DNA of 64,000 bases. It comes from Pseudomonadota bacterium (GTDB lineage Bacteria; Bdellovibrionota; UBA2428). Below the pieces are notes generated by a model. That model ran no database searches and was not told the origin of the DNA. It saw only the letters and a program-made list of their open reading frames with translations. Shown here piece after piece: positions 37,513-55,711 of this stretch. Location: positions 2,905 through 66,904 of the forward strand of contig JAGNHS010000006.1 in the NCBI GenBank assembly GCA_018001635.1, in the 5' to 3' direction. Position 1 is the stretch's first letter. Each line of letters starts with the position of its first letter. A program made the translations under genes and the position numbers.

Positions 37513-38129
37513 AGCAGCCTTGGTTTGTGTTTTCTTCTTCGTCGGGAGAAACTTTTGAGAAACTTTATAATTCTTTAAGTCATGAGGCTAAAAACTCGCT
37601 TCAAGCTTTTTATGTGGATCGTGAGTGTGGAGCTTTTGAACGAGCTCAAAAGATTTTAGGCTCCGATAAAGTTAAAAGTTTTTCTAAAAAAGAATTTGAA
37701 GCTTCGGTTTTAAATTTACTAAAAAATTCGGGTCACTCTCAGGCCATTATTTTGTTATGCGGATTTTTTGGAATTCTCACTAAGGCCTTTTTAGATCAAT
37801 GTCCATTTACAGTGCTCAACACTCATCCTTCTTTGCTCCCAGCTTTTCCGGGCTTAGATAAAAAGGTTCATCAAGCTGTTTTTGATCAAGCTCATTTTAG
37901 TGGTTTTACTCTTCATTTGGTCAACGAAACCCTGGATGGGGGCGCCATCGTTTTTCAAAAATCACTTTCGATAAAAGAAACGAAAACTTGGGAAGAATGT
38001 CGCGATAAGGTTCGCGATTTGGAGCAAACAGAGCTTCCTAAAATATGGGATAAAGTCCTAGAATTAAGTTTTCGTCCCGAAGACCGTTACTCAACGGCCC
38101 GACAACTCCTTCAGAAATATAATTTTTGA
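37503..38129 (+). CDS. purN: Phosphoribosylglycinamide formyltransferase-like (PurN family)
   Basis: Formyl-transferase motifs LNTHPSLLPAFPG and GFTLHLVNETLDGGAIVFQ. Overlaps the guaA stop by 10 nt. The N-terminal region is divergent. Confidence 0.7.
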   Translation: MGVKQPWFVFSSSSGETFEKLYNSLSHEAKNSLQAFYVDRECGAFERAQKILGSDKVKSFSKKEFEASVLNLLKNSGHSQAIILLCGFFGILTKAFLDQCPFTVLNTHPSLLPAFPGLDKKVHQAVFDQAHFSGFTLHLVNETLDGGAIVFQKSLSIKETKTWEECRDKVRDLEQTELPKIWDKVLELSFRPEDRYSTARQLLQKYNF

Positions 38130-38142
38130 GAATTTAAATTTC

Positions 38143-39591
38143 TTATTTTGTACCTGCCAGCTTAGGGAGTGAGTCGATTGTGGCTTGTGAAATCGCATAG
38201 CCCCTAGTTTGAGCAAGTCTTGCAGAAAGTGCCGATACGTAGGGCACCATATGTTTTCCAGGGCAATCATGACCATCATTTACGTTGAGGCAAACTCCCG
38301 TTAGGCAATGTCCTTTATCTCTATGAGTTCGTACGTGTTCTATAGGATATTTCATAGCGATTTGATCTTGAAGTTTTGTGAGGAGAGTTACAACTTCTTC
38401 AGGCACGGCATCTTTATCGTAATCTCCTGCAATTGAAACTCCGATAGATCGAGCATTGCAATCAGACGCGTGACAACCGCGATAACCTAATGGAGTTCCT
38501 TCAAAAATTTTCCACTCTCCTCGAGCATCCTTCTTAATCACAAAATGATAACCCAAATCTTTAAAAGGTTTTTGAAAGCGGTGAAACAAACTCATATCGA
38601 CAAGATTGGGTGATTGAGATCCATCGGTGTGGTGAATAACTATTTCATCGTAGGTGAGTTCTTGTTTTCTTTCCTGGAACCATTTTGGGTCCTGAGAGCT
38701 GACAGTCTGAGTGCTATATTTTCTTTTTTTTCCATTCACAGAGGAAAGAGCGCGATACTTTTGTCCATGGGCTTCCTCAGACCACCATTGTGCGCGAGAT
38801 ACAATATTGACATTTGAATTTGGGCTAAATCTTCGAGAGCTCACTTTGCTTTTGGCATTTTTAAGAGCGTTTCTGTCATTTTCAACAAGGGATAGAAATT
38901 TTGAATGCTGATTTCGGTAATCACTACTAGATAAAGAGAGCCATAAACTGTCTTCAACACATTTAAATTTTTTAGAAATATTGGAATTTTTTAAGGCTTT
39001 AATGAGGGCCAATTGAGTCTGCGTGACTTCTTGTTCTAAGGAGTCATTCTTAACAAGGGCTTCTTGGTCCATTCCGTGGGTTTTCATTTTTACAAAAAAT
39101 CCCTTTTGCGAATGACTTAAAAAGAAATGTTCTTGCTTTTGAACGGCATTCAAATAATTTATAAGACTCAAGTTTAAGCTACTAATGGCGGACTTTGTTC
39201 GACTCTTTTGAGGCCCATCGCTGAGCTTAAGTTTGAGTCCTTCGATGAAAGAAATTCTTTCATCAAGGTGATCTTTGTTGATGTATATTGCAAGTTGATC
39301 GAGATCATTGACTAGACTTGAATCAGGACAGGCACCCTTGTTAAAAATAAATTCTATAGGATCTGAATCAGTTTTAATATTATTGTTTGAACTTTGAGGA
39401 GTTTTTGTGTTTTGAATTTCTTCTCTTGAGGTTGCTTTTGTTGTTGTGTTTTTGTTGCTGTTCGCCGGATTCCTGTGAAAAATTCTACTAAAAAAACTAT
39501 CTGTAGCTGAAAAAACTGCTGGTATTGAAATTAAATTCAACAAACCTAAAATAAAAAAAACAAATGAGTACTGAGTTTTTTTCATGCCCAC
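38143..39591 (-). CDS. Exported N-acetylmuramoyl-L-alanine amidase (Amidase_2/PGRP domain) with long N-terminal region
   Basis: Signal peptide is present. The C-terminal amidase_2 blocks are IVIHHTDGS, LGYHFVIKKDARGEWKIFEGTPLGYRGCHA and NARSIGVSIAGDY. Confidence 0.8.
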   Translation of the reverse strand: MGMKKTQYSFVFFILGLLNLISIPAVFSATDSFFSRIFHRNPANSNKNTTTKATSREEIQNTKTPQSSNNNIKTDSDPIEFIFNKGACPDSSLVNDLDQLAIYINKDHLDERISFIEGLKLKLSDGPQKSRTKSAISSLNLSLINYLNAVQKQEHFFLSHSQKGFFVKMKTHGMDQEALVKNDSLEQEVTQTQLALIKALKNSNISKKFKCVEDSLWLSLSSSDYRNQHSKFLSLVENDRNALKNAKSKVSSRRFSPNSNVNIVSRAQWWSEEAHGQKYRALSSVNGKKRKYSTQTVSSQDPKWFQERKQELTYDEIVIHHTDGSQSPNLVDMSLFHRFQKPFKDLGYHFVIKKDARGEWKIFEGTPLGYRGCHASDCNARSIGVSIAGDYDKDAVPEEVVTLLTKLQDQIAMKYPIEHVRTHRDKGHCLTGVCLNVNDGHDCPGKHMVPYVSALSARLAQTRGYAISQATIDSLPKLAGTK

Positions 39592-42700: not shown

Positions 42701-42969
42701 CAGCTGCCGACAGGGTAACGATTCACCGCCGCCATTCCAGCCACTGAAGACGGATTGAGTAATTCTACAATATGTTTTTTTATGCCATTTAGAAGACCTA
42801 ATTTATCGGCGATGTCATGAACTTCAGCTAAACGTTTATGATATTCCGCTGCGTCAGGTTGGTTGTGCGAGTCCGCTATTAAGTGCTCTTGGCAGCTGAA
42901 AGAGTGTTGGGCAAAGATGAAGCTAAGGATACTGAGAAACTTTAGAGTGTTTAATCTAATAAAGCTCAT
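39760..42969 (-). CDS. Fusion protein: N-terminal SpoVR/YcgB-like domain plus C-terminal YeaH/YhbH (DUF444, vWA-like) domain, with signal-peptide-like N-terminus
   Basis: SpoVR block GVLEFVLSGHSTQHSYYLSNLSPILFMNILAHVYGHNFFHVNSYF (about 42540-42660). A Gly/Asp-rich linker (GDGNDGDGEGDGEPDEGSDEDSD) follows. DUF444 blocks are YIEIPLELYQSLIKDEVELPNL, PDPDISAHVTIISDLSGSM and QLGGGTDY. N-terminus is MSFIRLNTLKFLSILSFIFAQHS. Confidence 0.85.
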   Translation of the reverse strand: MSFIRLNTLKFLSILSFIFAQHSFSCQEHLIADSHNQPDAAEYHKRLAEVHDIADKLGLLNGIKKHIVELLNPSSVAGMAAVNRYPVGSWSDGAAIFNQARNLQGVLEFVLSGHSTQHSYYLSNLSPILFMNILAHVYGHNFFHVNSYFKHKTSHDRVGVSVELDELMTDIGKYEDPREVEDWFFHLLSLEMAQDVWSGAYVEPKDLKADRPIGFNQWRDGLVQTSQSSGKQTVSLLQAFVSELPSDIAPWKLEMAKKFEKMNRFIPGAVNTKLLNEGFAMLVEEIIFSHHPDYARSFGDAAEIGMLAGRVARPSLTNPYFLGLEIWREIREEFNRRPENIKLEGMERDQKFINYAREIINNPNLGNNVMFIFSKLTDQWIKNRHLALVKKFSNEEKFQLAQQGAPLPQDYMDGTLYQVITHDPERIRYQVQQDWNLSYAYPRVVWNNLHNQTDDVAKLSVSNEMGYFTPINRKTVAPTLLSWAKILRKTVELEATLIIDVIKEVTWDWFSFKPKMKVIGYRLARAKIRVNPEGQINVSTLKKMEILDSNSSWEEGIEIHQTPSFREWTPEAAEKSTVDKEIYGHLFKNLREFLIDYHIDQTEVPKGIVSTLKNKEGIEIDPLGSIYKNINDVVGSMALNEVPHGILKALNRYHQKVAERFLAAFSKAANNGGLTRTGSGYSLKVLPEVGGIVFDRRAQNGIKRLLSKVNDLDNNPFVTDDGLLLQPQGLKDKEYYVEKSSNQPGDGNDGDGEGDGEPDEGSDEDSDTGKPSNGQGCGGGDPSYIEIPLELYQSLIKDEVELPNLRPLKGQTEQMRKIFVGSQPLDRKPYVAKKIVRDAIKLGLGVINLREEEGEDTSELDPFEVGVDFLQKKNIHSKNHRQQPDPDISAHVTIISDLSGSMMGYVEKMKEIIFNIRSLLKHKYKNIVFTYVAFDGVAYDFDEAHENDFYKVQLGGGTDYGVGAAKALEVQAKFPDSEYDRFTFMFGDLIADLSDSAQSNIEKVMGNSRFFGTINFTAYSEEDALGQFLIGKAKMDNFVGYQLISEEEEKVNVVKLLRKLFKTENKKKK

Positions 42970-45900
42970 TTTTTCTCCTCAGGAATCAATAAATATTCGC
43001 AACGATCGCCGAATCCAGCATGATTTCTTTCCAATTCCGGAACCTTATCTCTTATGAGATCATTACCTTCTAAAAGTTGTGTGACGTATTCAACAGTAAG
43101 AGGTGAGAGTGGAGATTCTTCAGTTTTAAAGGCAAATTCAGCGAATTCAGCTCGGGTGCTGAGCGCGGGTTCGTCTATGATTTCTTCGAGCATTTTCATC
43201 ATGAAAACGTTGGCATTGTCCCAGGGTAGATTGGCAATGGCTTGGTCTATAGCCCAAAGAAAAATAATCGCTAAATCACTTGAGCTCAAATTTCTGTGGA
43301 GTCCTTTTTGTACTTCTTTGAGTTTGGGATTTAAAAAACCCTGATTAGAGACAAACATTTGAAAGAGGTCTCTTATTTTGTCTGTAGTGCTTGCAAATTC
43401 TTCACGCACTTCTTTTGAGTTTTTCATGGAATCAAGCCAAGCTTGAGAGTTGGATTCTTGAAATCCATTGGATTGATAAAATTTGTAAAACAAATTTTTC
43501 ATGAGCGATTCAATGTTGATAATTAAGCGGCTTATGTATTCACGTTGTCCTTCTTGTTCCTGAATTGAGCCTTTAATTTTTAAAAAATCATCTAGGGAAT
43601 CGCTCTCAAGAACGCTAGACGCGGGAAGTTTGAAAGGAATAACGGGTTTTGAATTATGATGAGCATCCATGAGGTCTTGGAATTCGGAAAGGAAACCAGA
43701 GTGGTTATTTATTTTTAATCGAACTGGGGATAGATCCAAATTCCAAAATCTTAATTCTGGACGATTTCTTAAGTTGAGATAGACTCCCGTGATGAGCGGT
43801 TTGAGGTAGTACATTTCATTTTGAAGACTCGCCCTAAAAAACTTATGATTTTGGATTGAGTTTATGAAATGATTATAAAAATTGATTCTAAAAGAGTTAG
43901 AATTAAATTCTGCGAAATCAAGTCTTCCGCGAAGGTTGTCAAAGGTGACTGGTTTTACAACAACATGTTTCTTAATTTGGTTTCTTAATGTGGTTGAATT
44001 TATAGTGGAACCACCTTCTTCCACTTGATGATCATCATTGTACCATTCATCAACATTCCAATCGTCTTTGAGGTCTTTGCTGTCATGGGTATCGCTTTTA
44101 GAGCTAGTCACATAATAGAGTGGAGCGGGGGCTAGAGAGTCATCTTTAGCTTCTGTGAATAGAGAGTTAGTAACGGGCATTAAAAAGTTTCGCGCGTGAG
44201 CTTTGGGGAAAATTTGTGCAATTTCAGAAAGAATATGTGGATTCACTAAAATCAGTTTGTTTGAAAGAGTTAATTCTTGGAGACTTCGAGCTCTGATTTT
44301 TGAAATCAAACCCGAGGCTTTGGCCTCACGTGGAAAATCACCAAAGTTAATGAGATCAGAAAAACGAGCTAAGATGGAGGGCTCATATTGAGCACCTTCA
44401 ACTTGTGAAAGTGCTGCAATGATTTGTGATTCAATAGAACTAGCATCATCGATATATTGATCTCTAATTTCACGATTGGATGCAGGGTTGATGGTTACAA
44501 ATAAAGAGATATTTCTAACAGGAATTTCGATGGTCATTTTATCTTCAAGACGAGAGACTCTGACCAAGTTGTTGTTCAGTAAGTTTTGGATATAAGACAT
44601 AACTCGACTGAGAACGTTGGCGTTCTTAGCTTTGTGAAGATCGTCAATAAGTATGAAACCTCGGTAGCCGAGAGGAAGTGATAAGAAATTGTCTAAGTGT
44701 TTCAGTGCGTCTTCAACATATAAACTTTTTCCAGTGGCTTCTTCTTTTTTATCTACCAAATCTTCTACTTTTAGGAAAAAGGCTTGAGCATTTTCATCTA
44801 AAGGTCTGTTGAAGTCGTAAACTTTTATATCGAGTAATTGGATGAGCTTCTCAAAGAAAAAAGTTTTTCCTAAACTTGTTTCACCGAAAAATACGGCTGA
44901 TGAGGGAATTTGCTTTGAACTATCGGACCCTTGAGTTTGCGAAAGAATAAGCCTGAAAATTCTTTCTTTGAGATCCAGTTGACCAGCATATCCTAGTTTT
45001 GTGAGATCCACTGCGGCTCGAGCGGTGTCTTTAATTTTATGAAGAACGTCTTCGGGTTCAAGGGATTTATAATTTAAGGGGATGGGGAAAACTTTGGCTA
45101 AAAATCTTTCTACATAGTTTTCGTCAATCACTCGACTTCTTCTGAGTTTATGGTCGTCGACTAATGATTTTCTAAAAATGGAATAGGAGCGTACAAAGGC
45201 TTCGATGGGTTCTTGATTGAGTGAATTGGCAACAGCTTCAATTCGATTGGCTAAAAATTTGGTGATGTTCAAAAACGGAGCGCTGTTTCTTTCGGCGCCA
45301 GATTCGTTTCCATTGTATCGAAATGAGTAATTCAGAGTTCTAATGTCTTCTCGATAGAATAAATTTCTCAAAATGTTAGAGCGGTGCTCTACGCTTGGAT
45401 ATTCAAGTCGAACTATTTCAAAATCTTTTTGAAGATCCATAAAATGCGACTCAAGGCCTAAATCTTTTTCTAAATCTTCGATTTGTTCAGGAGTGGCTAC
45501 AATAATTTCTGAAACGCTTGGGGTAGCTTCATCTCTTAAGCGCCATTGCTTTTTTAATTTAGGTTGGATTCTTCTACCTTCGGAGGCCAACCACCACATG
45601 ATGTGAGGGAAAATTGTATTGGGTTTGTCTATGTCGCTACGAGAAGAACTGTTTCCATCTTTGTCACTGCCTTCGTTGGGGCTGTTGGCGCTCGATTGAG
45701 CCTCGGAAGCCGTTTCAGCTAATAGCTCAGTTTTTTTCATGGCCGCAGGATCGCTAATTCTAAAAGGTTTGATGTCGCTTTTTTCTCCAACTAGTGGACG
45801 TTCATTGCGTAAAAGGTCGCTCGCATCTGCTAAAAGAACAACACTATTTTCTTGGCTGAGTCTTCTCATGGCGTCTAGATTGCCAAAGATTTCTTCTTGA

Positions 45901-48900
45901 TGAACTTTTCCACCTTGTGGATATCTGAATATTGAAAGATGGGGATTTCGAAAATTCCAGGAAGTGTTTAAATTTGGATTTCCATTAGTATCTCTTTCTA
46001 GGGCCACGTTGTAGCGACTCGACCAATGAGTCATTAAAAAGCGAAGCATGAGTTTTTTGATGTTTTCAGGGACAACTATGATTCTATGTTTAGGTTTTTC
46101 AGGTTTTTTAGAGAGCTCACTCAAAATGGGTCTTAAATTTGGGAAAACTTGAAGATCGTCTGAGGTGAGCGCACTCACCGACATTCTTCTGATGTCAGGA
46201 GTGGATCTCGGAGTGTTCGGAGGCCAGTTGTACCATTGTGAGGTTAAGAATCTTGCATCGATTTCAAATAGACCTTTGTCTACTAAGCCTGCTTTGAATT
46301 CATGAGGATGAGCTTCTTGAAGTTTTAAAAGTTTTTTAGGAGTTGTTAGAACAACAGTTGTCACAGATTTGAAGGAGTCTGATGGAGAGCTTAAATCTTT
46401 AAGGTGTCGTCCTTTTCCTTCCGTGGCTAAGAGAAAAAGTCCAGAAAGTTTATGGGGCGAAGAGGGATCGTAAATGTGATCAGACGAGGTTGAGCGTGCT
46501 GATTCGGAGAAGCTTTCTTCATCGAGTTCATCGCCACCTTGGTTTGTTTCTACAACTTCTGGTTCATCTTCTTCATGCTTGTGTTTAGTTCCTTTGTTTC
46601 TGCCGTCGTTCTCTTCTTCATCCTCTTCGTCATCTTCTGTCTTTTTGTTTGAAGCTTTAGACTCGGGATCATTATTAGCGCTTACGGTTTCGATTCCCAT
46701 TTGTCTTTCAGAGTCGCTTGAGGCGTAGTCGAGTATGCTAAACGAGGATGCACTGTCACTATCTTCAGAGTTTTTGCCGTCTGTTTCTAATATGAAAGTT
46801 TGTAAAAGCTCGTCGGAGCCTGCAAATAGTACGTTTTGTGTTGTTGATTCAGAGGCAAGTTTTAATTCCTTGCGCATTTCCCGAGCATCGGATTGATGGT
46901 CAAAGAAGTAGAGTTCAAAATCGTTTCCACCGGGTTTCCATTTAAGGGACCAACCTGTTTTTTTGTTATCGAGTTTAAGGAGCATGAGGTTATAAAAGTT
47001 GGCGTAGTCTTCGTCAGACACTACAAGGAAAGTTTTTTTACCTTTTTTAGAAGGATCTACGACTAAGGAATCTAGGTACTCGTCTAAGAGTGGGTAAAGT
47101 GGTCCTTTCCCCCCAGGTCCGAAATTTAAATCTTTATAAGTTTTAGCTTGCTCAGCTTCATTTCCGTCGAGTGCTTTGGAAAGTGTTGAATTAATTGAGC
47201 GTAATCCAGTGGAGGATGAAATGCTCCATCGACTTCCTATCCAAAATAAGCGACCCTCTTTTTCGTTTTCCTGAACAATTCTTTCTTTAAGGCGAATATT
47301 AATATTTTCTTTTGAGGGAACAACAAGTTTAGAGACGTAATTAAAACATCTCATTTTATATTTTGCAGAAAAATAATCTTCATTGGGAGTGTCAACCCAA
47401 TACAGGGCACCATTGCCATCGGGAAGCACTCGGTCGCTAATGCGATTGGCGGTCACATAACTTTTTGTAAGCCAACCTGAGGAATCTGGAATGTTGTTGG
47501 CTGTGAATTCAATTTTTCCAGCTTTGAGTTGAGATTGAATTTCGTATCCTAGCAGATACACGCCACCCGTGTTCTGACGAGTCCTTTTGAGAAAGAGCAT
47601 AACGTAAATGCTGTTAGCGTGCTTTCTTAAACCTTTAAAAACTCTTACACCCTCAATTTGAGAGAATGAAAATGGAAGCTCTCGTGTGGCGAAGAAAGTG
47701 TTCTTTATGTTTTCTCCAACTCGACCCTCGTAATTAAAAAGGGTCACAAGATTGAATTTTCCTTCTAAATTAGGTTGCTGAGAGTTGTTTGGAAGCATTC
47801 CAAACAAATGGATTTTGAAGGCTTCCAATTGCTTCGAAGATTCGCTGAGTGGAAGATGAATGTCAGTGGTGTATAGAACAGCACGAATGGAATCTTTGGA
47901 AATGGATGTTCTTGAATTTTTCTTTGTCTTTGTTTTTGAGCTATTGGAATAGATAAGCTGTCCGGGAATGAATGATGAATCATCTTTGTTTAAATGCGAT
48001 GTTGAATCAGCAGGTGTTTCGTGTCGATCTGCGGAATGCGTATCCTCAAGATAGACTCCGGTTTTTTCATTGAGTTGTGATTGTTTGTCGTTATTGAATT
48101 CTCGATAAACAACATGGGGGCTCATGATTACGGGAAACTCGTTTTTAGCTTGAAGAAATACTGTTTTCTTTTTGGGGTCGCTTTCAGAGACGTTAAGATA
48201 GGCGGTGACTCGCAGTCCTCCGGGATTTTTTTGAGAATCACTTCTATAGGTTTTGGGCCCCACGCGAGGAGTGCTGTTGTCGAAAACTAAACCAAGGTTT
48301 TCCACATTCTTGATTCGTAATTCTAGTTCTTCTTTGCTGAAACTGTACGTATTCGATATAACCTGCATGTCTTTAACGCTGACGTGACCCATGGATTCTT
48401 CAAGTTCAATCGCGAAAGTTCCCCCTCCAGGATAATATTGAGTTTTTCCTGATAAAATTAAATAATGTTTTTTGTAAACCGCACCAGAAATGAGTTCGTC
48501 ATCAGGGGTGTTGTCTGAAAATCCAAAAATGGGTGCTGATTTTCTTTTTTCGATTTTAGGTTGTGGAAGATCAAAGGACTCTAGAATTATAACGTTGTCG
48601 TTGTTGAAAGGGTCGAATTTGAGTTTGGTAAATTGTTCTTGAACTTCGACAACCTGAATACTTCTGTTTCTGGATTTTAGTCTTAACAGAATGCTTTTAT
48701 CCAATGAGAATAAAACCTCAACAGAGGAATCGTTTGAGAGAGATCGAGTTAAAAACTTTTTATTGTCTTGATCCCAGCTGAGTCTTCCTTTTTGGGGTGG
48801 AGTACCTTCATATTGAAAGGAGAGCCCATCTCCTAAGGGTTCAAAGAATTGAGTGACTCCCGAAATGGCCATGTTAGAAACTTGAGGTTCGGGTCTTTTC

Positions 48901-49844
48901 TCGAGGACATCCACTAAGGGAGGATTAGTGAGCACACTCAGTTTAAGAGATTTTCCAGAATTAATATCGATGTCTCTATATCGACTTGTAAAAGTTTTTT
49001 TATCGATTTTGGAATTGGGGTCGAGATAATCCAATAAAAGCTTCACTTTTTTTAACCAAATATCAACGAGAGGGTGCTCTTTGTCGTTTTTCCATTTTTC
49101 ATAAACTGTTTTTAGAAGATAGGGGGAGTATGCTTTGTCGGGTGAATAGTCGGCAAAAAGTCTTATGAGTCCTTGGTCTGTGGGGTGAAATCTATAATCG
49201 AGGAGCACCGGTTCAGATATTTTAAATTCACCTGTTTCGATGCCTCCGTTTTTAACAATAGCAAAAGTGATTCCGTCAGAACCCATTTGAGGAATGCCTT
49301 GCTTAACTGAGATGATATACATACACGAGTTGTCTACAGGGTATTGTACAATCGTGATGTCTTTGGGGTCCTTTATGTTTTCAAGATAAATTTTACGTTT
49401 CGTGAGAGGATCGATGATTGGGACGGGAGTGGCAAATTTGTTGGGTATTTTTTGGGATTCATTAGCGCCAATAATGAGTGAGCTGGCTGCTTTTTTTTCT
49501 GAAGTGTTTTTGTTAACGATATAAATTTGTCCATCGAGAATGACTAAGGCTTCTTGATTTCCTTGTTGAGTGACAGGAGCTAAGAGTACAAAAGTTTCAG
49601 CGGATCGCTTATTCACGCCAAGCACTTCTTTTTGAATCAGTGGAGTAGAGTTTTCAGCTCCAGTATTAAAAAAATAAATTCCCTTTTTTTTGCCATTGAG
49701 TTCAGTGTTGAATACCAACTCGTATAAGGCTCTTGCATTATGAGGATGTGGAAAAATGAAAGACCCCTCGTCGGCCGCGCGTAAGGCTCCACTTTGTCCG
49801 ACAAGTAGGGCGGCAAGGGCAATATGTTTGAGGAGGTGTCTCAT
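42966..49844 (-). CDS. Giant (2292 aa) protein: signal peptide, unassigned N-terminal region of about 880 aa, acidic linker, and Clp/Hsp100-like AAA+ modules (last one with intact Walker A/B)
   Basis: Uninterrupted 6.9-kb ORF with signal peptide MRHLLKHIALAALLVGQSGALRA|AD. Walker A is FFGETSLGKTFFFE (about 44863-44886) and Walker B is GFILIDDLHKA (about 44641-44665), followed by NISLFVTINPAS. An upstream Clp D1-like block is IIVATPEQIEDLEKDL...FEIVRLEYPSVEHRSNILRNLF. ATGA overlap with the downstream gene. Confidence 0.8.
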   Translation of the reverse strand: MRHLLKHIALAALLVGQSGALRAADEGSFIFPHPHNARALYELVFNTELNGKKKGIYFFNTGAENSTPLIQKEVLGVNKRSAETFVLLAPVTQQGNQEALVILDGQIYIVNKNTSEKKAASSLIIGANESQKIPNKFATPVPIIDPLTKRKIYLENIKDPKDITIVQYPVDNSCMYIISVKQGIPQMGSDGITFAIVKNGGIETGEFKISEPVLLDYRFHPTDQGLIRLFADYSPDKAYSPYLLKTVYEKWKNDKEHPLVDIWLKKVKLLLDYLDPNSKIDKKTFTSRYRDIDINSGKSLKLSVLTNPPLVDVLEKRPEPQVSNMAISGVTQFFEPLGDGLSFQYEGTPPQKGRLSWDQDNKKFLTRSLSNDSSVEVLFSLDKSILLRLKSRNRSIQVVEVQEQFTKLKFDPFNNDNVIILESFDLPQPKIEKRKSAPIFGFSDNTPDDELISGAVYKKHYLILSGKTQYYPGGGTFAIELEESMGHVSVKDMQVISNTYSFSKEELELRIKNVENLGLVFDNSTPRVGPKTYRSDSQKNPGGLRVTAYLNVSESDPKKKTVFLQAKNEFPVIMSPHVVYREFNNDKQSQLNEKTGVYLEDTHSADRHETPADSTSHLNKDDSSFIPGQLIYSNSSKTKTKKNSRTSISKDSIRAVLYTTDIHLPLSESSKQLEAFKIHLFGMLPNNSQQPNLEGKFNLVTLFNYEGRVGENIKNTFFATRELPFSFSQIEGVRVFKGLRKHANSIYVMLFLKRTRQNTGGVYLLGYEIQSQLKAGKIEFTANNIPDSSGWLTKSYVTANRISDRVLPDGNGALYWVDTPNEDYFSAKYKMRCFNYVSKLVVPSKENINIRLKERIVQENEKEGRLFWIGSRWSISSSTGLRSINSTLSKALDGNEAEQAKTYKDLNFGPGGKGPLYPLLDEYLDSLVVDPSKKGKKTFLVVSDEDYANFYNLMLLKLDNKKTGWSLKWKPGGNDFELYFFDHQSDAREMRKELKLASESTTQNVLFAGSDELLQTFILETDGKNSEDSDSASSFSILDYASSDSERQMGIETVSANNDPESKASNKKTEDDEEDEEENDGRNKGTKHKHEEDEPEVVETNQGGDELDEESFSESARSTSSDHIYDPSSPHKLSGLFLLATEGKGRHLKDLSSPSDSFKSVTTVVLTTPKKLLKLQEAHPHEFKAGLVDKGLFEIDARFLTSQWYNWPPNTPRSTPDIRRMSVSALTSDDLQVFPNLRPILSELSKKPEKPKHRIIVVPENIKKLMLRFLMTHWSSRYNVALERDTNGNPNLNTSWNFRNPHLSIFRYPQGGKVHQEEIFGNLDAMRRLSQENSVVLLADASDLLRNERPLVGEKSDIKPFRISDPAAMKKTELLAETASEAQSSANSPNEGSDKDGNSSSRSDIDKPNTIFPHIMWWLASEGRRIQPKLKKQWRLRDEATPSVSEIIVATPEQIEDLEKDLGLESHFMDLQKDFEIVRLEYPSVEHRSNILRNLFYREDIRTLNYSFRYNGNESGAERNSAPFLNITKFLANRIEAVANSLNQEPIEAFVRSYSIFRKSLVDDHKLRRSRVIDENYVERFLAKVFPIPLNYKSLEPEDVLHKIKDTARAAVDLTKLGYAGQLDLKERIFRLILSQTQGSDSSKQIPSSAVFFGETSLGKTFFFEKLIQLLDIKVYDFNRPLDENAQAFFLKVEDLVDKKEEATGKSLYVEDALKHLDNFLSLPLGYRGFILIDDLHKAKNANVLSRVMSYIQNLLNNNLVRVSRLEDKMTIEIPVRNISLFVTINPASNREIRDQYIDDASSIESQIIAALSQVEGAQYEPSILARFSDLINFGDFPREAKASGLISKIRARSLQELTLSNKLILVNPHILSEIAQIFPKAHARNFLMPVTNSLFTEAKDDSLAPAPLYYVTSSKSDTHDSKDLKDDWNVDEWYNDDHQVEEGGSTINSTTLRNQIKKHVVVKPVTFDNLRGRLDFAEFNSNSFRINFYNHFINSIQNHKFFRASLQNEMYYLKPLITGVYLNLRNRPELRFWNLDLSPVRLKINNHSGFLSEFQDLMDAHHNSKPVIPFKLPASSVLESDSLDDFLKIKGSIQEQEGQREYISRLIINIESLMKNLFYKFYQSNGFQESNSQAWLDSMKNSKEVREEFASTTDKIRDLFQMFVSNQGFLNPKLKEVQKGLHRNLSSSDLAIIFLWAIDQAIANLPWDNANVFMMKMLEEIIDEPALSTRAEFAEFAFKTEESPLSPLTVEYVTQLLEGNDLIRDKVPELERNHAGFGDRCEYLLIPEEKK

Positions 49845-49862: not shown

Positions 49863-52463
49863 TTATTTTTTGTCGTGCTTGTTGACGTGCTCCACTAAGA
49901 ATCGAAGCGCTTGCACGAAAGATCTCTCGTTGTATCCGTATCTTTCCAAGTTGCTGAGTATCTTTTGCCCAGCCGTTTGAGTTTCAGTGGCCACGGATCT
50001 TCCTTGCATGAAATCAAGGAGGCTTTGGTAGCTGTTAGTTTTTAAGTTCTGACTCATCAACCAATCAGAAATAGCTTTTTCAAGCTTAATCCACATGGGG
50101 AGGGGTGATCCGTCAGTATTATGAAGCGCTAAATTGGCAACATAAGCTTGGAGATCTGGGGGATTAAGATCGTCGCCCCAGCGTTTTCTAAAGGCCTTTT
50201 TAATTTCAGTGAGTCTATCAAAATTGATGGCAGTAGGTATGTCGCCTTTTGATTTAGTGTGGTGTGTGGCTTTAGAGTCTTGCGCTAAGTGTGAAATTTC
50301 CGAAGTGACTGCATCGTAAATACTGCGCACTTTATTGGTGTCGTTAGCAATAATCGAGTTCACATCGTTCATGAGCTTAGGAAGTATGAGCTCTGCTGCA
50401 ATTCTCTCGGCGAGTTCGAGCCATTTAGCGTATTCAGGGCGTTCCTTTTGAAATTGGTTTTCGTGAAGGGTGAGTCTAAAGGCGTCTTTTATTTCTACAG
50501 GAGTTAAAGTGTTTGAATGTCCGGGAGATTGTGCGAGTTCAAGGGCCTTTTTAAAGACCACTTCAATATCGCGTTGTCCAATTCCATTATCGCCTTCATT
50601 GAGAAGAGCTTCCTTTGAGAATTCCGTTAAAGCCGCTAGAACTTCTTGATTCTCAACAACTTCATCTCCTGTGATAATTCGAAGACGGTCAATTGGGTCG
50701 GTGAACCATCTTAGATCGGGACGTGTGATACGAGTGAGAATGTTGGCGTCTTTGAGTTTATCGATATTTGTTTCAAGCGAAGAGCCTGCGGCAATGCATC
50801 CCAAGAAATATAGCGAATAGGGTGAAATATCGACAAAGGAACTTTTGCTAGCGCTGATTTCAGCTGGCGAATCAATTTTAACTCTTACGGCGTAATGACC
50901 CTCAGGGCCTGAAATATTTCCATTGCTGTCGGGTTCTGCATAAATTTCCTTGATGAGGGGTGAATTTGAGCTTTCGTTTAGTGTGGCGAGATTTTTGTGT
51001 TCTGTTGAATCCAATTTGCGTGCACTAAAGTTATTGGGTTTGAGAGTGAGTAAAAGTGCAAGCTCTCTCCATCTTGGATGGAGGAGGTTTTTCATGGCAA
51101 TATGTTGTAAGCGAGATAGAAGAGCGTCGGTGTCCATGCGTTTTTTGGAATCTGCAATGGAACTATAGTTTGCAGAAAACACATTAAAGGTGTCCATCGC
51201 TAAAGCGGGGGTGTCTGAACCTTTGGCGACGCCTTCTTGTAATACAGAAAGTAGGAAGTGGAGAACTACGGGGTCGTTTCGAGTAACGTCGTCCCAAATG
51301 ATCATGGAGCCATCGTTTTGAGAGAGGGGTCCGTTAAAATGGAAGCCGAGAGTGTTATTGGCGCCTTTAATTCTTGCGGCTACGTTGGCAGTTCCAATTA
51401 AAGAAGAGGTGTCGGGGGCTTCTTCCATAGGACGAATAATGGGATCGCGATTGGAGGCAAGGCTGATGTCTTTTCTTGCAATACCCACAAAATTTTCAAA
51501 TATGGCTAAATAGTCAGCTACGGTGAGAGAAGTTGCTTTTGTGGCTTTTAAAATATGTTTTTTATAAAAAGGAATGAGAAATTCTCTTAGGATATCTTCT
51601 GCATGAGAATCGCGGGCGACAGCTTGGCCAGGATTTCTTTCGTAGAAATCACCAATGTCGAAACCTAACATTTTAGAGGCGGTGGCACCTAGAGTTTTTG
51701 CGTAAGCCACTTTGAGTTCGGTGGGAAGTAGGCTGAAGGGACTTCTTTGAAGGCTTGTAACATTAAGGCGATCGCTATCTTTGACTAAGAATTGATCGAG
51801 TCTTTGACCTAATGAAGGATCAGTTTGTTTTATCATGTCCAAATTTTTCCAAAAATAGGTGTATTCCTTGAATAGAGGATCTCGAACTGAGAGGTGGGCT
51901 AGGGCATATCGAATGACGTATTCGAGAACTGTTTTTCCAGTTCCTGGAGGTCCCTTTAAAAGTGGTCCTTTACTTCCGCGCATACCTTGTGCGGCTTCGG
52001 AGATGATTTTTGCCAAGCTCGAGCTAGCTTCATATTGGCCTACGAGAAAAAGTCCGCCAGTTGCGGGCAAGGCATCATGATAGACTTTGGGAACATTATA
52101 ATATTGGTGCTTGTAGACGGGGTCTAAAACTCGGCGATATCCAAAATTATTCAAGACCGCTAATTGTTTTTGATCAGCATTCATTAAAAGTAAGGGATGC
52201 TCTTTTATGAGATCGGGTAATTTTGAAAAAGGATACTCTACGGCGTATTCTTCGGTGCCGGCAATAGCTAGTTGAGCCACTGTTTCGGGCACTAAAAGAG
52301 TTGAGCATAATTTTGGATCAACATGAAAACTTTTAGGAGTGCTAGTTGTTGATTTAGCCGCGGATGCTTTTTTGCTTTCTGCTGCAAATGAAAAATTTTC
52401 TAAGCTCATTAAAAAAATAACGACGTGTGTAATTTTTAGAATTGTAGGTAGGCTTTTTCTCAT
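49863..52463 (-). CDS. PrkA/YeaG-like AAA+ protein (866 aa) with signal-peptide-like N-terminus
   Basis: PrkA-type N-terminal AAA blocks are SLAKIISEAAQGMRGSKGPLLKGPPGTGKT (Walker A about 51932-51955) and DGSMIIWDDVTRNDPVVLHFLLSVLQEGVAKGSDTPALAMDTFNVFSANYSS. A long helical C-terminal region follows. N-terminus is MRKSLPTILKITHVVIFLMSLENFSFA|AE. Confidence 0.75.
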   Translation of the reverse strand: MRKSLPTILKITHVVIFLMSLENFSFAAESKKASAAKSTTSTPKSFHVDPKLCSTLLVPETVAQLAIAGTEEYAVEYPFSKLPDLIKEHPLLLMNADQKQLAVLNNFGYRRVLDPVYKHQYYNVPKVYHDALPATGGLFLVGQYEASSSLAKIISEAAQGMRGSKGPLLKGPPGTGKTVLEYVIRYALAHLSVRDPLFKEYTYFWKNLDMIKQTDPSLGQRLDQFLVKDSDRLNVTSLQRSPFSLLPTELKVAYAKTLGATASKMLGFDIGDFYERNPGQAVARDSHAEDILREFLIPFYKKHILKATKATSLTVADYLAIFENFVGIARKDISLASNRDPIIRPMEEAPDTSSLIGTANVAARIKGANNTLGFHFNGPLSQNDGSMIIWDDVTRNDPVVLHFLLSVLQEGVAKGSDTPALAMDTFNVFSANYSSIADSKKRMDTDALLSRLQHIAMKNLLHPRWRELALLLTLKPNNFSARKLDSTEHKNLATLNESSNSPLIKEIYAEPDSNGNISGPEGHYAVRVKIDSPAEISASKSSFVDISPYSLYFLGCIAAGSSLETNIDKLKDANILTRITRPDLRWFTDPIDRLRIITGDEVVENQEVLAALTEFSKEALLNEGDNGIGQRDIEVVFKKALELAQSPGHSNTLTPVEIKDAFRLTLHENQFQKERPEYAKWLELAERIAAELILPKLMNDVNSIIANDTNKVRSIYDAVTSEISHLAQDSKATHHTKSKGDIPTAINFDRLTEIKKAFRKRWGDDLNPPDLQAYVANLALHNTDGSPLPMWIKLEKAISDWLMSQNLKTNSYQSLLDFMQGRSVATETQTAGQKILSNLERYGYNERSFVQALRFLVEHVNKHDKK

Positions 52464-52608: not shown

Positions 52609-53148
52609 ATGCGAGTCGTTTTTGTTTTTTCTTTTTTATGGGCTGCGCTTCTTTATTCTGCCACAACGAGTCAAGATTCTGCGAGCACTATATATTTTAA
52701 GGTGCTCAAGGGTTTTGATGTAGAAAAAAAGAAATCAAATGCTGAAGTAGACGCATTAGTCGGCAAAAAAATTCGCATTCCTGGATTTATGGTTCCTCTT
52801 GAATATAAATCTCAAAAGGTGACTGAGTTTTTGTTAGTACAGTCTCTTCCCTCTTGCATTCACGTACCTCCCCCCTCTCCTAATCAAACCATTATGGTGA
52901 AGATGAAGGATAAAAAAACAGTGTCTTTGAGTATGGATCCCATTTGGGTGACAGGAATCTTAAAATTGGTCAAACAAGACAAATATACATTTGGTGATGC
53001 CGTTTATAGCATTGAGGGCGAGTCTTCTGCTCCTGTAGATTCAAAAGACTTTAATAAAGTGGGTTTATTTATGGGAGATCAGGTGGATATGGCTCCTTTA
53101 GAGGAGAATCCTTTTGGTGGTGAGAGTAAAACTAAGAAAAAGAAATAG
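52609..53148 (+). CDS. Exported DUF3299 domain protein
   Basis: Signal peptide is present. The DUF3299-like core is KKIRIPGFMVPLEYKSQKVTEFLLVQSLPSCIHVPPPSPNQTIMVKM...PIWVTGILK. Confidence 0.65.
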   Translation: MRVVFVFSFLWAALLYSATTSQDSASTIYFKVLKGFDVEKKKSNAEVDALVGKKIRIPGFMVPLEYKSQKVTEFLLVQSLPSCIHVPPPSPNQTIMVKMKDKKTVSLSMDPIWVTGILKLVKQDKYTFGDAVYSIEGESSAPVDSKDFNKVGLFMGDQVDMAPLEENPFGGESKTKKKK

Positions 53149-53185
53149 AAATAGTTTAAGAAATAGACTTAAAGGGTACGACATT

Positions 53186-53761
53186 ATGAAAAAGCATTTT
53201 TTAAAATCCCTAACATTAAGTTTGTGTCTCTCAATAACTTTGATGGCCAAAGAAAAACATCATCATCATGAGTCTTTGGCAAAGCATATTCACGGTGAAG
53301 CTAATCTCAATTTGATACTTGAAGATGATAAAAAGGGTGAGCTTGAATTTGAGGCCCCTGGCATGGATGTCGTTGGATTTGAATACGATGCCAAAACACC
53401 CAAGGAAAAAGAGAAGCTCAATCAAGTTTTGTCAGAATTTAAAAGCAAAGCTCAAGAATTATTTGTTTTGGATGCAAGTCTAAAATGCGTTTTAACTCCT
53501 AAAGAGGTGGCCTGGGAATCGGAGGATCACGAAGAGCCTGAAGGCGTTCATAGAGATCATGAAAAACAGCCCGTCGCAGAACATCATGCGATTGAAGCTT
53601 CTTACTCTATAAATTGTCAAAAGCCTCTTAAGGGGACTCGTTTTAATTTGGAGCTTTTCAAAAAATTTAAATCGTTAAAAAAAGTCAATTTTCAGTATAT
53701 GGGCAGCAATCTTCAGCGGGCCAGCGAGTTGTCTGCTGGAAAGTCTAGCATTGAGCTCTAA
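53186..53761 (+). CDS. Exported His-rich DUF2796 protein (ZrgA-like periplasmic zinc-binding protein)
   Basis: ATG 53186 gives signal peptide MKKHFLKSLTLSLCLSITLMA. Then KEKHHHHESLAKHIHGEANLNLILEDD...LEFEAPGMDVVGFEY, typical of DUF2796. More His/Glu lies in the middle (HEEPEGVHRDHEKQPVAEHH). Confidence 0.7.
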   Translation: MKKHFLKSLTLSLCLSITLMAKEKHHHHESLAKHIHGEANLNLILEDDKKGELEFEAPGMDVVGFEYDAKTPKEKEKLNQVLSEFKSKAQELFVLDASLKCVLTPKEVAWESEDHEEPEGVHRDHEKQPVAEHHAIEASYSINCQKPLKGTRFNLELFKKFKSLKKVNFQYMGSNLQRASELSAGKSSIEL

Positions 53762-54455
53762 AGAGTCCATTTCTGTAGAGGCTTTAGAGTTTTCATATGT
53801 AAGAAATTCTAAGCCCTTGTTAAAAATTCCTGATTTAAAAATATTAAATGGAGATAGAGTTTTTTTATTTGGCCCAAGTGGTTCCGGAAAAAGCACCTTG
53901 CTTTCATTGCTCACTGGAGTTTTGAAACCTCAAAAAGGCAAGATAACACTTTTAAATAATTTTGAAATATCTCAGGCTAATACTATGGCGGCCGATATTT
54001 TTCGGGGGGCGCATATGGGGTATATATTCCAGCAGTTTAATTTGCTTCCTCATTTAAGCGTGCGCGAAAATATTTCATTAGTTTTGGATTTAAATCCTCT
54101 CCGATTAAATAAAGTTTTAAAATCAAGCACTGTTGAATTGGAAATTAAAAGATTAGCTCAACATTTAGAGATTGAAAATATCTTAGATCGCTCTGCAATG
54201 GCTATTAGTGTTGGTCAGCAACAACGAGTTGCCGCTGCTCGTGCCTTAATTGGTGCTCCGGACATTATTATTGCTGATGAACCCACATCTTCTTTGGATA
54301 CAGATCGCCGAGATCTTTTTATGAAAATGATTCTTAGTGAAGTTGAATTGAGTCAAAGCACTTTGATTTTTGTGAGTCATGATCAAAGTTTGATGAAGCA
54401 TTTTAATAAGCATTTTTCTATTCTGGATTGGAGTGCAGAGGGAGTCGTGCAGTGA
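53751..54455 (+). CDS. ABC transporter ATP-binding protein (MacB/LolD-type)
   Basis: Walker A GPSGSGKST, Q-loop, signature SVGQQQRVAAARAL, Walker B IIIADEPTSSLD and H-loop VSHD. The TTG start overlaps the upstream stop. Confidence 0.9.
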   Translation: MSSKESISVEALEFSYVRNSKPLLKIPDLKILNGDRVFLFGPSGSGKSTLLSLLTGVLKPQKGKITLLNNFEISQANTMAADIFRGAHMGYIFQQFNLLPHLSVRENISLVLDLNPLRLNKVLKSSTVELEIKRLAQHLEIENILDRSAMAISVGQQQRVAAARALIGAPDIIIADEPTSSLDTDRRDLFMKMILSEVELSQSTLIFVSHDQSLMKHFNKHFSILDWSAEGVVQ

Positions 54456-55711
54456 TTTGGTGGCGTTTGGCGATTCGTTCTCTTGTCTTTCGTTGGCAGG
54501 CTTCATTACTAACTGTAGTTTCTATGGCGCTCAGTGTGGCGCTTTATTGTTCGGTTGAATCTCTGCGGTTGGGGGTTCATGAAACTTTTGAACAAACTGT
54601 AAGTCAAACAGATCTTATCGTGGGTGCTCGAAGCTCACCTCTGAATATTATTTTATACACCCTTTTTCATATGGGCGATGCTACGAACAATCTTCGTTAT
54701 GAAACTTTTAAGAAAATTTCATCGCATCCCGTAGTTCGATGGAGCATTCCTTTTTCTTTGGGTGATTCCCATCGTGGCTTTAGGGTGATGGCCACTAATG
54801 AAAGTTTTTATGAGTTTTTTCAATTTCGTGGGAATTGGCATATTGAATTTAATTCTGGAACTTTAGCCAAAGATGTTTTCGATGTTGTTTTAGGTTCCGA
54901 AGTGGCGGCCCGCTTGAATTACAAACTGAATGACAGAGTTGTGATTGCCCATGGAATGAGTTCAGAGAAGGGTGCTTTTTCAGAGCACAGTGATAAACCA
55001 TTTCATGTGGTGGGTATTTTGAAGCGCACAGGGACACCGGTCGATCGGGCTCTTTTTATAACTCTTGAAGGAATGGAAGCTATTCATATTAATTGGAAGG
55101 ATGGCTCAGCAGATGAATCTTCAACTCCTAAAGCGATAACAAAAGATCAGATTAAGGTGACACAAATCACATCTTTTCTATTGGGGCTGAAGTCGCGTGT
55201 TGCAGTTTTACATATGCAAAGGATGATTCAAAATTATGCGGATGAGTCTCTTGAGGCGGCTATTCCTGGTTTTGTACTGAGCCGCTTTTGGGAAAGTCTT
55301 GGAGCCTTTGAGCGCACTTTAAGTTTAATGACTCTAGCTATCTTTATAGTGGGGCTTATAGGTATGTTGATTGCATTGCTGACGTCTTTGGATCAGAGGC
55401 GAAGAGAAATGGCTGTCTTGAGGGCTTTGGGTTCTAGGGCTTTTCAAATATTTATTTTACTTTTAAGCGAAGCTTATTTTTTGATGGCTTCTTCTATTGT
55501 TGCAGGTTTGGGTCTCTATTCTCTTTTGTTCTTTCTCTTTCGTGATTTTGTTGAGTCAAAATATGGTGTGGTTTTAGTCTTGTGGCCCTTTGATTCTGAG
55601 AATCTCTATATTCTTTTAGGTCTCTTTGTGGCGGGAACTATCGCGGCATTAATACCTGCAGCTGTTGCCTACCTTAGAAGTGTTTCAGATGGATTGCAGC
55701 AAAGAACTTAG
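54428..55711 (+). CDS. ABC transporter permease, FtsX/MacB-type
   Basis: N-terminal TM, a large periplasmic domain, and a C-terminal FtsX 3-TM bundle (RRREMAVLRALGSRAFQIFILLLSEA...). The likely true start is the in-frame GTG at 54452, which overlaps the ATPase stop (GTGA). Confidence 0.85.
   Translation: MECRGSRAVIWWRLAIRSLVFRWQASLLTVVSMALSVALYCSVESLRLGVHETFEQTVSQTDLIVGARSSPLNIILYTLFHMGDATNNLRYETFKKISSHPVVRWSIPFSLGDSHRGFRVMATNESFYEFFQFRGNWHIEFNSGTLAKDVFDVVLGSEVAARLNYKLNDRVVIAHGMSSEKGAFSEHSDKPFHVVGILKRTGTPVDRALFITLEGMEAIHINWKDGSADESSTPKAITKDQIKVTQITSFLLGLKSRVAVLHMQRMIQNYADESLEAAIPGFVLSRFWESLGAFERTLSLMTLAIFIVGLIGMLIALLTSLDQRRREMAVLRALGSRAFQIFILLLSEAYFLMASSIVAGLGLYSLLFFLFRDFVESKYGVVLVLWPFDSENLYILLGLFVAGTIAALIPAAVAYLRSVSDGLQQRT

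Follow-up and report, generated by a model that had tools for sequence, protein, structure and literature searches.

The module formed by PrkA/YeaG, YhbH/YeaH (a DUF444 protein with a vWA domain) and SpoVR/YcgB is widespread, being met with in Bacillus sporulation as well as in E. coli under nitrogen starvation, and its canonical members PrkA/YeaG, YeaH and YcgB are cytoplasmic proteins. The cofitness shown by YeaG, YeaH and YcgB indicates that the canonical triad acts together (10.1101/072470), and a canonical copy is found among the attack-phase core genes of Bdellovibrio (PMC5430801). The biochemistry of canonical PrkA is disputed, as the B. subtilis protein was reported to be an ATP-dependent protease (PMC9512850), while negligible protease or kinase activity was reported for PrkA of B. 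anthracis (PMC13001217). Here, we analyze a stretch of 64,000 nucleotides (the window from here on; G+C content about 40%) from a Pseudomonadota bacterium placed by GTDB in the Bdellovibrionota (assembly GCA_018001635.1, contig JAGNHS010000006.1, positions 2,905 to 66,904), in which a divergent version of this module surrounds a gene for a 2292-amino acid protein, here called the giant. On balance, we favor the view that the giant is an exported Clp-like protein, composed of a signal peptide, a beta-rich head, one or two dead D1 domains, a D1 lid, a live D2 domain and a helical tail, and that it would work together with a PrkA-like protein and a SpoVR-YhbH fusion encoded on either side of it.

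Organization of the locus

The giant gene is the middle gene of a fixed, translationally coupled three-gene operon, whose members are as follows.

49863 to 52463, minus strand: PrkA-like AAA+ protein, the upstream partner; 866 amino acids, divergent, with a signal-peptide-like N-terminus; 18 nucleotides before the giant gene
42966 to 49844, minus strand: giant gene, an open reading frame (ORF) of 2292 amino acids
39760 to 42969, minus strand: fusion of SpoVR with a DUF444/YhbH vWA protein, the downstream partner; 1069 amino acids, with a signal-peptide-like N-terminus; its start overlaps the stop of the giant gene by 4 nucleotides

The giant ORF had been reported at these positions in a preliminary description of the window, and it is borne out by the ORF list and the translation; the nine peptide motifs quoted there (given below with the domains to which they belong) could all be located, at most a few bases from where they had been placed. 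The same description put the giant inside a PrkA/SpoVR-YhbH module, with which the Pfam and NCBIfam matches of both neighbors agree. The upstream protein matches the PrkA C-terminal domain of Pfam at 26.6 bits (cut-off, 25) and AAA_PrkA at 20.5 bits, and its Walker A motif, G..GTGK, is kept in eight orthologues, as is its Walker B motif. The downstream protein matches SpoVR in its N-terminal part (E 2.7e-12) and DUF444 in its C-terminal part (E 1.7e-16), with a partial match to the NCBIfam model spore_yhbH, and the fusions keep the HV.GHN and NEG motifs of SpoVR together with the D.SGSM, GGGT and GD elements of a vWA domain with a metal-ion-dependent adhesion site (MIDAS)-like center. The order PrkA-like protein, giant, SpoVR-DUF444 fusion was found in all nine of the other loci examined (L001-L009), hence in ten with the window, so that the relatives of the giant at these loci do adjoin prkA/spoVR-type genes. 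The contig of L005 ends early, and the downstream fusion was counted where the contig continues; at two loci whose partners lack precomputed Pfam matches, the partners were confirmed by BLAST. Start and stop codons overlap by 4 nucleotides within the operon. All-against-all BLAST of the flanking genes found no further conserved operon member among the loci compared. Promoter-like sites are not commoner than in shuffled sequence (26 against 29.8 ± 6.7), and terminator-like sites are modestly commoner (18 against 12.9 ± 3.2), none of them informatively placed.

The three domain families of the canonical module are thus found here in one operon, which nevertheless departs from that module in several ways. 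SpoVR and YhbH make up a single fusion protein of about 1050 amino acids, the PrkA-like protein is about 200 amino acids longer and very divergent (its Pfam scores are at or below threshold), a Clp-like gene for some 2000 amino acids is inserted between the partners, and all the products have signal-peptide-like N-termini and are poor in cysteine. In locus L008 (13946-18079), the SpoVR-DUF444 fusion reaches 1377 amino acids, against about 1050 elsewhere, and has no precomputed Pfam match; by BLAST, both of its halves are homologous to the window fusion, with about 300 extra residues between them.

The giant family

A search seeded with short words (k-mers) recovered a single homologue of the giant (P0001, 24% identical over residues 1233-2256), from which the giant might have passed for an orphan. 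That possibility was overturned when 1.84 billion cluster representatives were searched exhaustively by HMMER with a two-sequence profile of the C-terminal 1060 residues: 206 of them matched at E<=1e-3, and 154 at E<=1e-30. Most members of the family are 1750-2330 amino acids long and match in their C-terminal 1000 residues. Few of them carry source names, and all the named ones belong to the Bdellovibrionota, either as "AAA family ATPase [Bdellovibrionota bacterium]" or as hypothetical proteins of Bdellovibrionaceae, Pseudobdellovibrionaceae and Bdellovibrionales; in the genome collection, the family is carried by metagenome-assembled genomes (MAGs) of Bacteriovoracaceae and Oligoflexales. 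From the orthologue in a Bacteriovoracaceae contig (L002), described further below, the window itself is taken to come from a Bacteriovoracaceae-like member of the Bdellovibrionota. Our literature search found no paper describing the giant family, a previously undescribed one that, to judge by source names, belongs to Bdellovibrionota.

An intact D2-type AAA+ module

Toward its C-terminus, the giant carries an intact AAA+ module of the Clp D2 type, as had been proposed from the sequence. Its features are listed below, with the quoted peptides as read from the translation.

44340 to 44990, minus strand: D2-type AAA+ large subdomain, residues about 1619-1835 (AlphaFold2 model and motif conservation)
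44862 to 44885, minus strand: Walker A, G1654-T1661, in the peptide FFGETSLGKT (residues 1652-1661, window 44862-44891)
44634 to 44657, minus strand: Walker B, residues 1730-1737 with D1734 and D1735, in the peptide GFILIDDLHKA (residues 1729-1739, window 44628-44660)
44487 to 44489, minus strand: sensor-1 N1786, in the peptide NISLFVTINPAS (residues 1778-1789, window 44478-44513)
44364 to 44366, minus strand: Arg1827
43947 to 44339, minus strand: D2 small (lid) domain, mixed alpha/beta, residues about 1836-1966 (model residues 604-734)
44190 to 44192, minus strand: R1885 of the sensor-2-like pair A1884, R1885, in the D2 small domain

Conservation was counted in an alignment of 123 family C-termini. 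In Walker A, Lys1660 and Thr/Ser1661 are present in all 123 sequences, Gly1654 in 122 and Gly1659 in 119; in Walker B, both Asp1734 and Asp1735 are invariant (123/123) and His1737 is found in 108/123, so that the motif reads Asp-Asp, then x-His, where Clp proteins have Asp-Glu. Sensor-1 Asn1786 and Arg1827 are likewise invariant (123/123 each), and the sensor-2-like Ala1884 and Arg1885 are kept in 107/123 and 118/123, respectively. Judged from these motifs, the module is probably under selection for nucleotide binding, and the trans-acting arginine would be expected to serve inter-subunit catalysis. An AlphaFold2 model of residues 1233-2292, built on a 41-sequence alignment, has a mean predicted local distance difference test (pLDDT) score of 84.9 and a predicted template modeling score of 0.75, and shows in order the degenerate unit 2 described below, a helical lid, the second AAA+ domain, an alpha/beta small domain and an all-helical domain of about 320 residues. 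The second AAA+ domain has the pre-sensor-1 hairpin which, together with the alpha/beta small domain and the best 50 structural matches, all of them Clp/Hsp100 proteins, supports its assignment to the D2 type.

Degenerate D1-like units

Upstream of the D2 module lie a degenerate D1-like region with its lid and, further toward the N-terminus, a second degenerate copy, both of which had been recognized in the preliminary description.

46248 to 47099, minus strand: pseudo-ATPase unit 1, residues about 916-1199, an extra D1-like large subdomain without a P-loop; it contains KKTFLVVSDEDYANFYNLML (residues 936-955, window 46980-47039), which forms a degenerate pair with VLFAGSDELL (residues 1005-1014, window 46803-46832)
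46458 to 46784, minus strand: acidic Asp/Glu/Ser tract, residues 1021-1129, a disordered insertion inside unit 1
45399 to 46148, minus strand: pseudo-ATPase unit 2, residues 1233-1482, a D1-like large subdomain in which V-P-E-E-L-K replaces the P-loop; it contains KHRIIVVPENIKKLMLRF (residues 1252-1269, window 46038-46091), which forms a degenerate pair with VVLLADASDLL (residues 1335-1345, window 45810-45842), and IIVATPEQIEDLEKDL (residues 1447-1462); FEIVRLEYPSVEHRSNILRNLF (residues 1475-1496) spans its end
44991 to 45398, minus strand: helical lid of the D1-like module and linker, residues about 1483-1618, beginning EYPSVE...ILRNL (helices at model residues 253-384)

In the AlphaFold2 model, unit 2 takes a beta-alpha-beta fold with five strands, and structural alignments to Clp proteins span both it and the D2 module. 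Family logos show no GK[TS] at this position in any of the 123 sequences, the P-loop being replaced across the family by V-P-[ED]-E-L-[KR], and unit 1 is likewise devoid of a P-loop. Among the residues kept in unit 2 and the lid are T1451 (101/123), E1465 (120/123), Arg/Lys1467 (69/123) and P1483 (117/123), which, with G/A-T and E-x-R-F left as remnants in unit 2, we take to resemble the 'GATT', 'ERRF' and 'EPS' motifs of Clp D1, a likeness that sequence searches did not confirm; the same holds for the opening of the lid, which is presumably akin to 'EPSVE..ILRGL' of Clp D1 and was not recovered by sequence search either.

Family profiles were needed to show that the two units are duplicates, since self-BLAST of the single sequence found nothing and single-sequence Smith-Waterman comparison was marginal (z 1.4-2.9). 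When the family profiles of unit 1 (residues 900-1232) and unit 2 (residues 1233-1500) were compared by hhalign, they matched at 99.7% probability (E 1.1e-26, 218 columns), against 0.1-0.4% in five control comparisons of unrelated regions. As a guard against alignment contamination, a hidden Markov model (HMM) of unit 2 was also built from 58 other proteins, leaving out the window sequence and delimiting each unit by its distance to Walker A, and it gave two colinear matches in the window protein, at residues 917-1063 (E 7e-6) and at residues 1111-1190 (E 2e-5). The other AlphaFold2 model, which covers residues 33-1232 (pLDDT 76.4), is beta-rich to about residue 880 and then enters unit 1; it gives this unit the strand and helix order of unit 2 plus the disordered acidic insertion; as neither unit 2 nor D2 was part of that model, unit 1 was found independently to have a D1-like AAA+ fold. 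We conclude that units 1 and 2 are homologous dead copies of a Clp/Hsp100 D1-type AAA+ domain. The internal repeat that had been suggested is thus real for the two degenerate units, but the idea of a triplication that includes the last module does not hold, as the units duplicate each other and reach only 0.6-1.5% probability against D2 in hhalign. The extra D1-like unit is present in 57 of 107 full-length relatives.

The acidic tract is indeed rich in the residues attributed to it (18% Ser, 17% Glu and 14% Asp, 49% together, with a net charge of -24), and its pLDDT is below 50 over model residues 989-1097. It had been regarded as a spacer between the units; hhalign and the models place it instead inside unit 1, between the third strand and the following helix, and it aligns with a shorter Ser-rich loop (residues 1379-1406) of unit 2.

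Relation to Clp/Hsp100 proteins and torsins

Class I Clp/Hsp100 proteins (ClpA, ClpB, ClpC and Hsp104) have tandem D1-D2 AAA+ domains with lids, an arrangement that the giant shares at the level of the fold, and they are the best structural matches for its D1-like and D2 parts. Foldseek, run against the PDB with the model of residues 1233-2292, gave 610 matches at E<=1e-3, and the best 50 were all ClpC1, ClpA, ClpC, Hsp104 or ClpB, with E from 6e-13 to 5e-11; their alignments extend over 693-784 columns against chains of 548-810 residues, therefore covering both D1 and D2. The D2 domains of the giant and of class I Clp proteins are alike in the pre-sensor-1 hairpin, the sensor-1 Asn, the trans Arg, the sensor-2 Ala-Arg and the alpha/beta small domain. 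On the other hand, the giant has a D1 that is without a P-loop in every member and duplicated in about half of them, lacks the Clp N-domain, the M-domain and a conserved pore-loop motif, has Asp-Asp in Walker B, and adds a beta-rich head of 850 amino acids, a helical tail of 320 amino acids and a probable signal peptide, and is more than twice the size.

Sequence profiles speak a different language. The expectation that the C-terminal half would match Clp/AAA+ profiles was answered only by AAA_22 (E 8e-5, below the cut-off) and AAA (E 0.11) for the D2 region in Pfam, with nothing Clp-specific, and the positive answer came from structure. No NCBIfam model matched the giant, and the D1-like region alone found nothing in the PDB profile search. 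Membership of the Clp family by sequence was rejected, given that Pfam and NCBIfam offer nothing specific and PDB profiles are weak and at the P-loop level only. We also considered that the giant might be a PrkA paralogue, and rejected it: when D2, the C-terminal domain and unit 2 were aligned by hhalign to the PrkA-like and SpoVR-DUF444 profiles, the result was a 46-column P-loop match at 66% probability. In short, the fold of the giant is Clp-like, whereas its sequence, motif set, architecture and predicted location all set it apart from the Clp family.

Torsins are eukaryotic AAA+ proteins of the endoplasmic reticulum (ER) lumen, related to Clp D2, that lie behind a signal sequence and depend on partners. 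They share with the giant a Clp-D2-like module behind a signal sequence, which is meant as an analogy only and not as membership, as torsins are small, single-module eukaryotic proteins without an arginine finger of their own, and the ER lumen holds ATP. No torsin was among the best 50 PDB matches of Foldseek.

The head and the helical tail

49776 to 49844, minus strand: signal-peptide-like N-terminus, residues 1-23, read from the sequence as MRHLLKHIALAALLVGQSGALRA followed by ADEG
47205 to 49775, minus strand: beta-rich N-terminal region, residues about 24-880, without a confident match
42969 to 43934, minus strand: all-helical C-terminal domain, residues about 1971-2292 (model residues 739-1054 helical, with high confidence)

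The first 880 or so residues had been described as matching nothing recognizable, and the head is still without a confident match, though its approximately 850 amino acids are probably beta-propeller-like. The helical tail (about 320 amino acids) is conserved in the family at positions that include W2136, W2208 and F2239; Pfam gives no match for it, and it has no similarity to the PrkA-like and SpoVR-DUF444 profiles.

Evidence for export

The signal peptide that had been noted on the giant is supported both by the features read in its own sequence and by a home-made heuristic, which was positive for 96 of 116 full-length relatives, most of the negatives being truncated or narrowly missing the rule, and negative for GuaB, GuaA and PurN. 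What had been missed is that both operon neighbors have a signal-peptide-like N-terminus too. In the window and in seven other loci, the N-termini of all three proteins were read, and they open with one or more basic residues, followed by a brief hydrophobic core and a small-x-small site, with the exception of the giant of L007 (8001-13181), whose called start is without a signal peptide. The NCBI cluster member of that protein, MAF90542.1, is 34 residues longer, and 178 unused nucleotides lie upstream; the start was therefore probably mis-called. No hydrophobic stretch of 19 residues is present in the three window proteins, and no internal one is conserved in the family, so that nothing would return the ATPase part to the cytoplasm; a second membrane segment with that role was accordingly rejected.

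Exported bacterial proteins are known to be depleted in cysteine. The giant has 0.13% cysteine (3 in 2292), the family 0.17% on average, the PrkA-like protein 0.23% and the fusion 0.19%, in comparison to 1.0-1.9% in the cytoplasmic controls GuaB, GuaA and PurN of the same window. These controls come from an ordinary guaB-guaA-purN-like cluster (34502-38129, plus strand), which converges on the strand of the module. Taken together, all three operon products appear to be exported, as far as can be read from their sequences.

Proposed function and alternative explanations

The architecture of the giant, its fold, the conservation of its motifs, the duplication, the synteny and the signal-peptide-like N-termini are observed; in the working model that we favor, export, oligomerization, ATP hydrolysis and a part in remodeling are inferred. 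The giant would assemble through its AAA+ tiers into a ring or another oligomer, in which ATP would be bound and hydrolyzed at the D2 sites only, inter-subunit catalysis being implied by the conserved trans-acting Arg1827 and the sensor-2 Arg1885, and the dead D1 tiers would be structural scaffolds. The beta-rich head would bind the target, and the disordered acidic loops may provide ligands to the MIDAS metal in the vWA domain of the partner. Acting jointly with its two operon partners, the PrkA-like ATPase and the SpoVR-YhbH fusion, the giant could then remodel or assemble a protein or an envelope structure outside the cytoplasm, either in the predator periplasm or in a prey compartment, where, as a matter of speculation, prey-derived ATP in the bdelloplast might be the source of energy.

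Several observations weigh against this model. The TM-scores to Clp structures are low (0.2-0.46), because a single tier superposes at a time and the two tiers stand at a different relative angle; the Pfam families AAA_2, ClpB_D2-small, AAA_lid_9 and Clp_N have no match in the giant; and the best PDB profile matches, from searches with profiles of 3 sequences and of the family (41 sequences) and with the D1-like fragment, are weak and at the level of the P-loop (ClpC D2, E 0.037; ClpX, E 0.042; ORC5, E>=0.04). With Asp-Asp in Walker B, hydrolysis may be slow or absent, and the putative pore-loop-1 segment (about residues 1697-1707) varies among the 123 relatives, has gaps and keeps no aromatic-hydrophobic-Gly motif, which argues against threading. 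As to export, the heuristic also flags 28 of the 46 window ORFs of at least 120 amino acids, including a neighboring M28 peptidase (32003-33211), and is therefore permissive, unless exported proteins are unusually abundant in this stretch, which a predatory lifestyle would lead one to expect. Lastly, the bacterial periplasm is generally held to lack ATP, and for this reason the export of two ATPases with conserved sites is hard to reconcile with current knowledge.

This last difficulty would vanish if the architecture were as described, but the three proteins were cytoplasmic, with N-termini that are uncleaved anchors or non-functional, and formed a membrane-associated complex running on cytoplasmic ATP, as the canonical module does. 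Such an arrangement would agree with the cytoplasmic location established for PrkA/YeaG, YeaH and YcgB, the conservation of the catalytic sites of both ATPases would fit an ATP-containing compartment, and the signal peptides were here judged by heuristic and inspection. We nonetheless hold it to be unlikely. A basic n-region, a short h-region and an Ala-x-Ala-type c-region are found in all three proteins, at loci that are only 24% identical; in the three window proteins, the h-region does not reach the length of a 19-residue membrane span; with its N-terminus positively charged, most of the protein would lie on the outer side, with no second membrane segment to bring the ATPase inside; and cysteine is strongly depleted in comparison to the cytoplasmic neighbors.

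If the giant is exported and Clp-like, as we propose, it could still be asked whether it is a classical threading unfoldase or disaggregase of the Clp/Hsp100 kind, a hexamer with a central pore in which the PrkA-like protein, reported to be Lon-like, would be the associated protease. The best structural matches (ClpA, ClpC, ClpB and Hsp104), the conservation of Walker A, sensor 1, the Arg finger and sensor 2, and the protease activity reported for B. subtilis PrkA (PMC9512850) would be in line with such a machine. However, the putative pore loop 1 lacks the required motif, D1 is dead in every member, there is neither a Clp N-domain nor a match to the AAA_2 or ClpB_D2-small profiles, and the protease or kinase activity of B. 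anthracis PrkA was negligible (PMC13001217), all of which makes this explanation improbable. Because no pore-loop motif is conserved and there is no Clp N-domain, we favor remodeling over processive threading, and the giant probably does not thread substrates into a protease in the manner of a classical Clp unfoldase.

The combination of an AAA+ ATPase with a vWA protein also brings to mind the MoxR-vWA systems of Kaur et al. 2020 (PMC7159879), where an AAA+ ATPase and a vWA protein with a MIDAS are accompanied by a third, large component (which can be an inactive NTPase, a double FtsH AAA+ protein or a beta-propeller), as they are here, and where AAA+/vWA pairs act as chaperone and co-chaperone. 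By this analogy, the operon could be an anti-phage or conflict system of the NTPase+vWA type, either STAND/Avs-like or a MoxR-vWA ternary system, with the giant as sensor or effector. We consider this very unlikely, and a defense system was in fact rejected when PADLOC gave no match for any of the three proteins. The operon is not among the systems in that paper (PMC7159879), which has no mention of PrkA, SpoVR or YeaH; the ATPase here is of the PrkA type, the sole match to bpMoxR being one in L003 at E 0.12; a SpoVR domain is present; and signal peptides on all components, which are predicted to be exported, would not suit an intracellular sensor. The three-gene composition is moreover fixed, with no variable effector domains seen, and the match to Avs5 is explained by the P-loop fold common to both and does not surpass the matches to Clp NBD1. 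Finally, the ORF is unusually long and the k-mer-seeded search returned one homologue only, as a chimeric or mis-assembled ORF or a pseudogene read-through might, but the objection of chimeric assembly is ruled out, and the chance of such an artifact is practically negligible, by virtue of a 2291-amino acid orthologue with the same neighbors in an independent MAG contig of an uncultured Bacteriovoracaceae (L002; 96 alignment columns different), a domain order common to more than 100 full-length homologues, catalytic residues invariant across the family and an AlphaFold2 model that is confident across domain boundaries.

To our knowledge, AAA+ unfoldases and remodelers in bacteria are considered strictly cytoplasmic, the periplasm being ATP-free. 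The giant family seems to be in conflict with this view, with more than 200 sequence clusters in which a perfectly conserved ATP site is preceded by an apparent secretion signal, which both partners have as well. This leaves two possibilities: the premise of an ATP-free periplasm is mistaken, or the family is an indication of activity in the prey, where ATP is available. As a more tentative extension of the exported Clp-like model, which we regard as possible rather than probable, Bdellovibrionota may carry a complete ATP-dependent machine (PrkA-like protein, giant and SpoVR-vWA fusion) outside the cytoplasm, in the predator periplasm or in invaded prey with leaking ATP. If true, bacteria would for the first time be seen to have an extracytoplasmic AAA+ system, as a prokaryotic equivalent of the torsins, and the long-elusive biochemical role of the PrkA-YhbH-SpoVR triad would become approachable. 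The fusion of SpoVR with YhbH and the addition of a Clp-like motor show which parts of the module act together, and the fused and extended module suggests protein remodeling rather than a purely signaling role. The family also offers a clean natural case of pseudo-ATPase tiers, hundreds of residues in extent, kept beside one live tier.

Neighboring genes

Other genes near the module deserve mention. Two plus-strand ORFs, at 57866-58525 and 59264-60385, encode proteins whose N-termini (MGYTMKLKTNYYGFTIVEVVMSVGIG... and MIKKIVRKKNAFTIVQVMVALALAG..., respectively) are like the prepilin leaders of type IV pilins and pseudopilins; neither has a Pfam match at E<=1e-4. On the strand of the module and 168 nucleotides downstream of it (38143-39591, minus strand) is the gene for a 482-amino acid protein that contains an N-acetylmuramoyl-L-alanine amidase domain (Amidase_2, E 3e-16) and whose N-terminus is signal-peptide-like. 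Cell-wall enzymes lie near the module elsewhere as well, namely M23 peptidases in L004 and L007, and a polysaccharide deacetylase and BacA in L004, and by BLAST none is conserved in position across the loci compared. Divergent from the module (52609-55711, plus strand) are genes for a DUF3299 protein (E 3e-28), a ZrgA-family zinc uptake protein (E 1e-37), an ABC ATPase and a MacB/FtsX-type permease, which form a probable zinc-uptake or export cluster.

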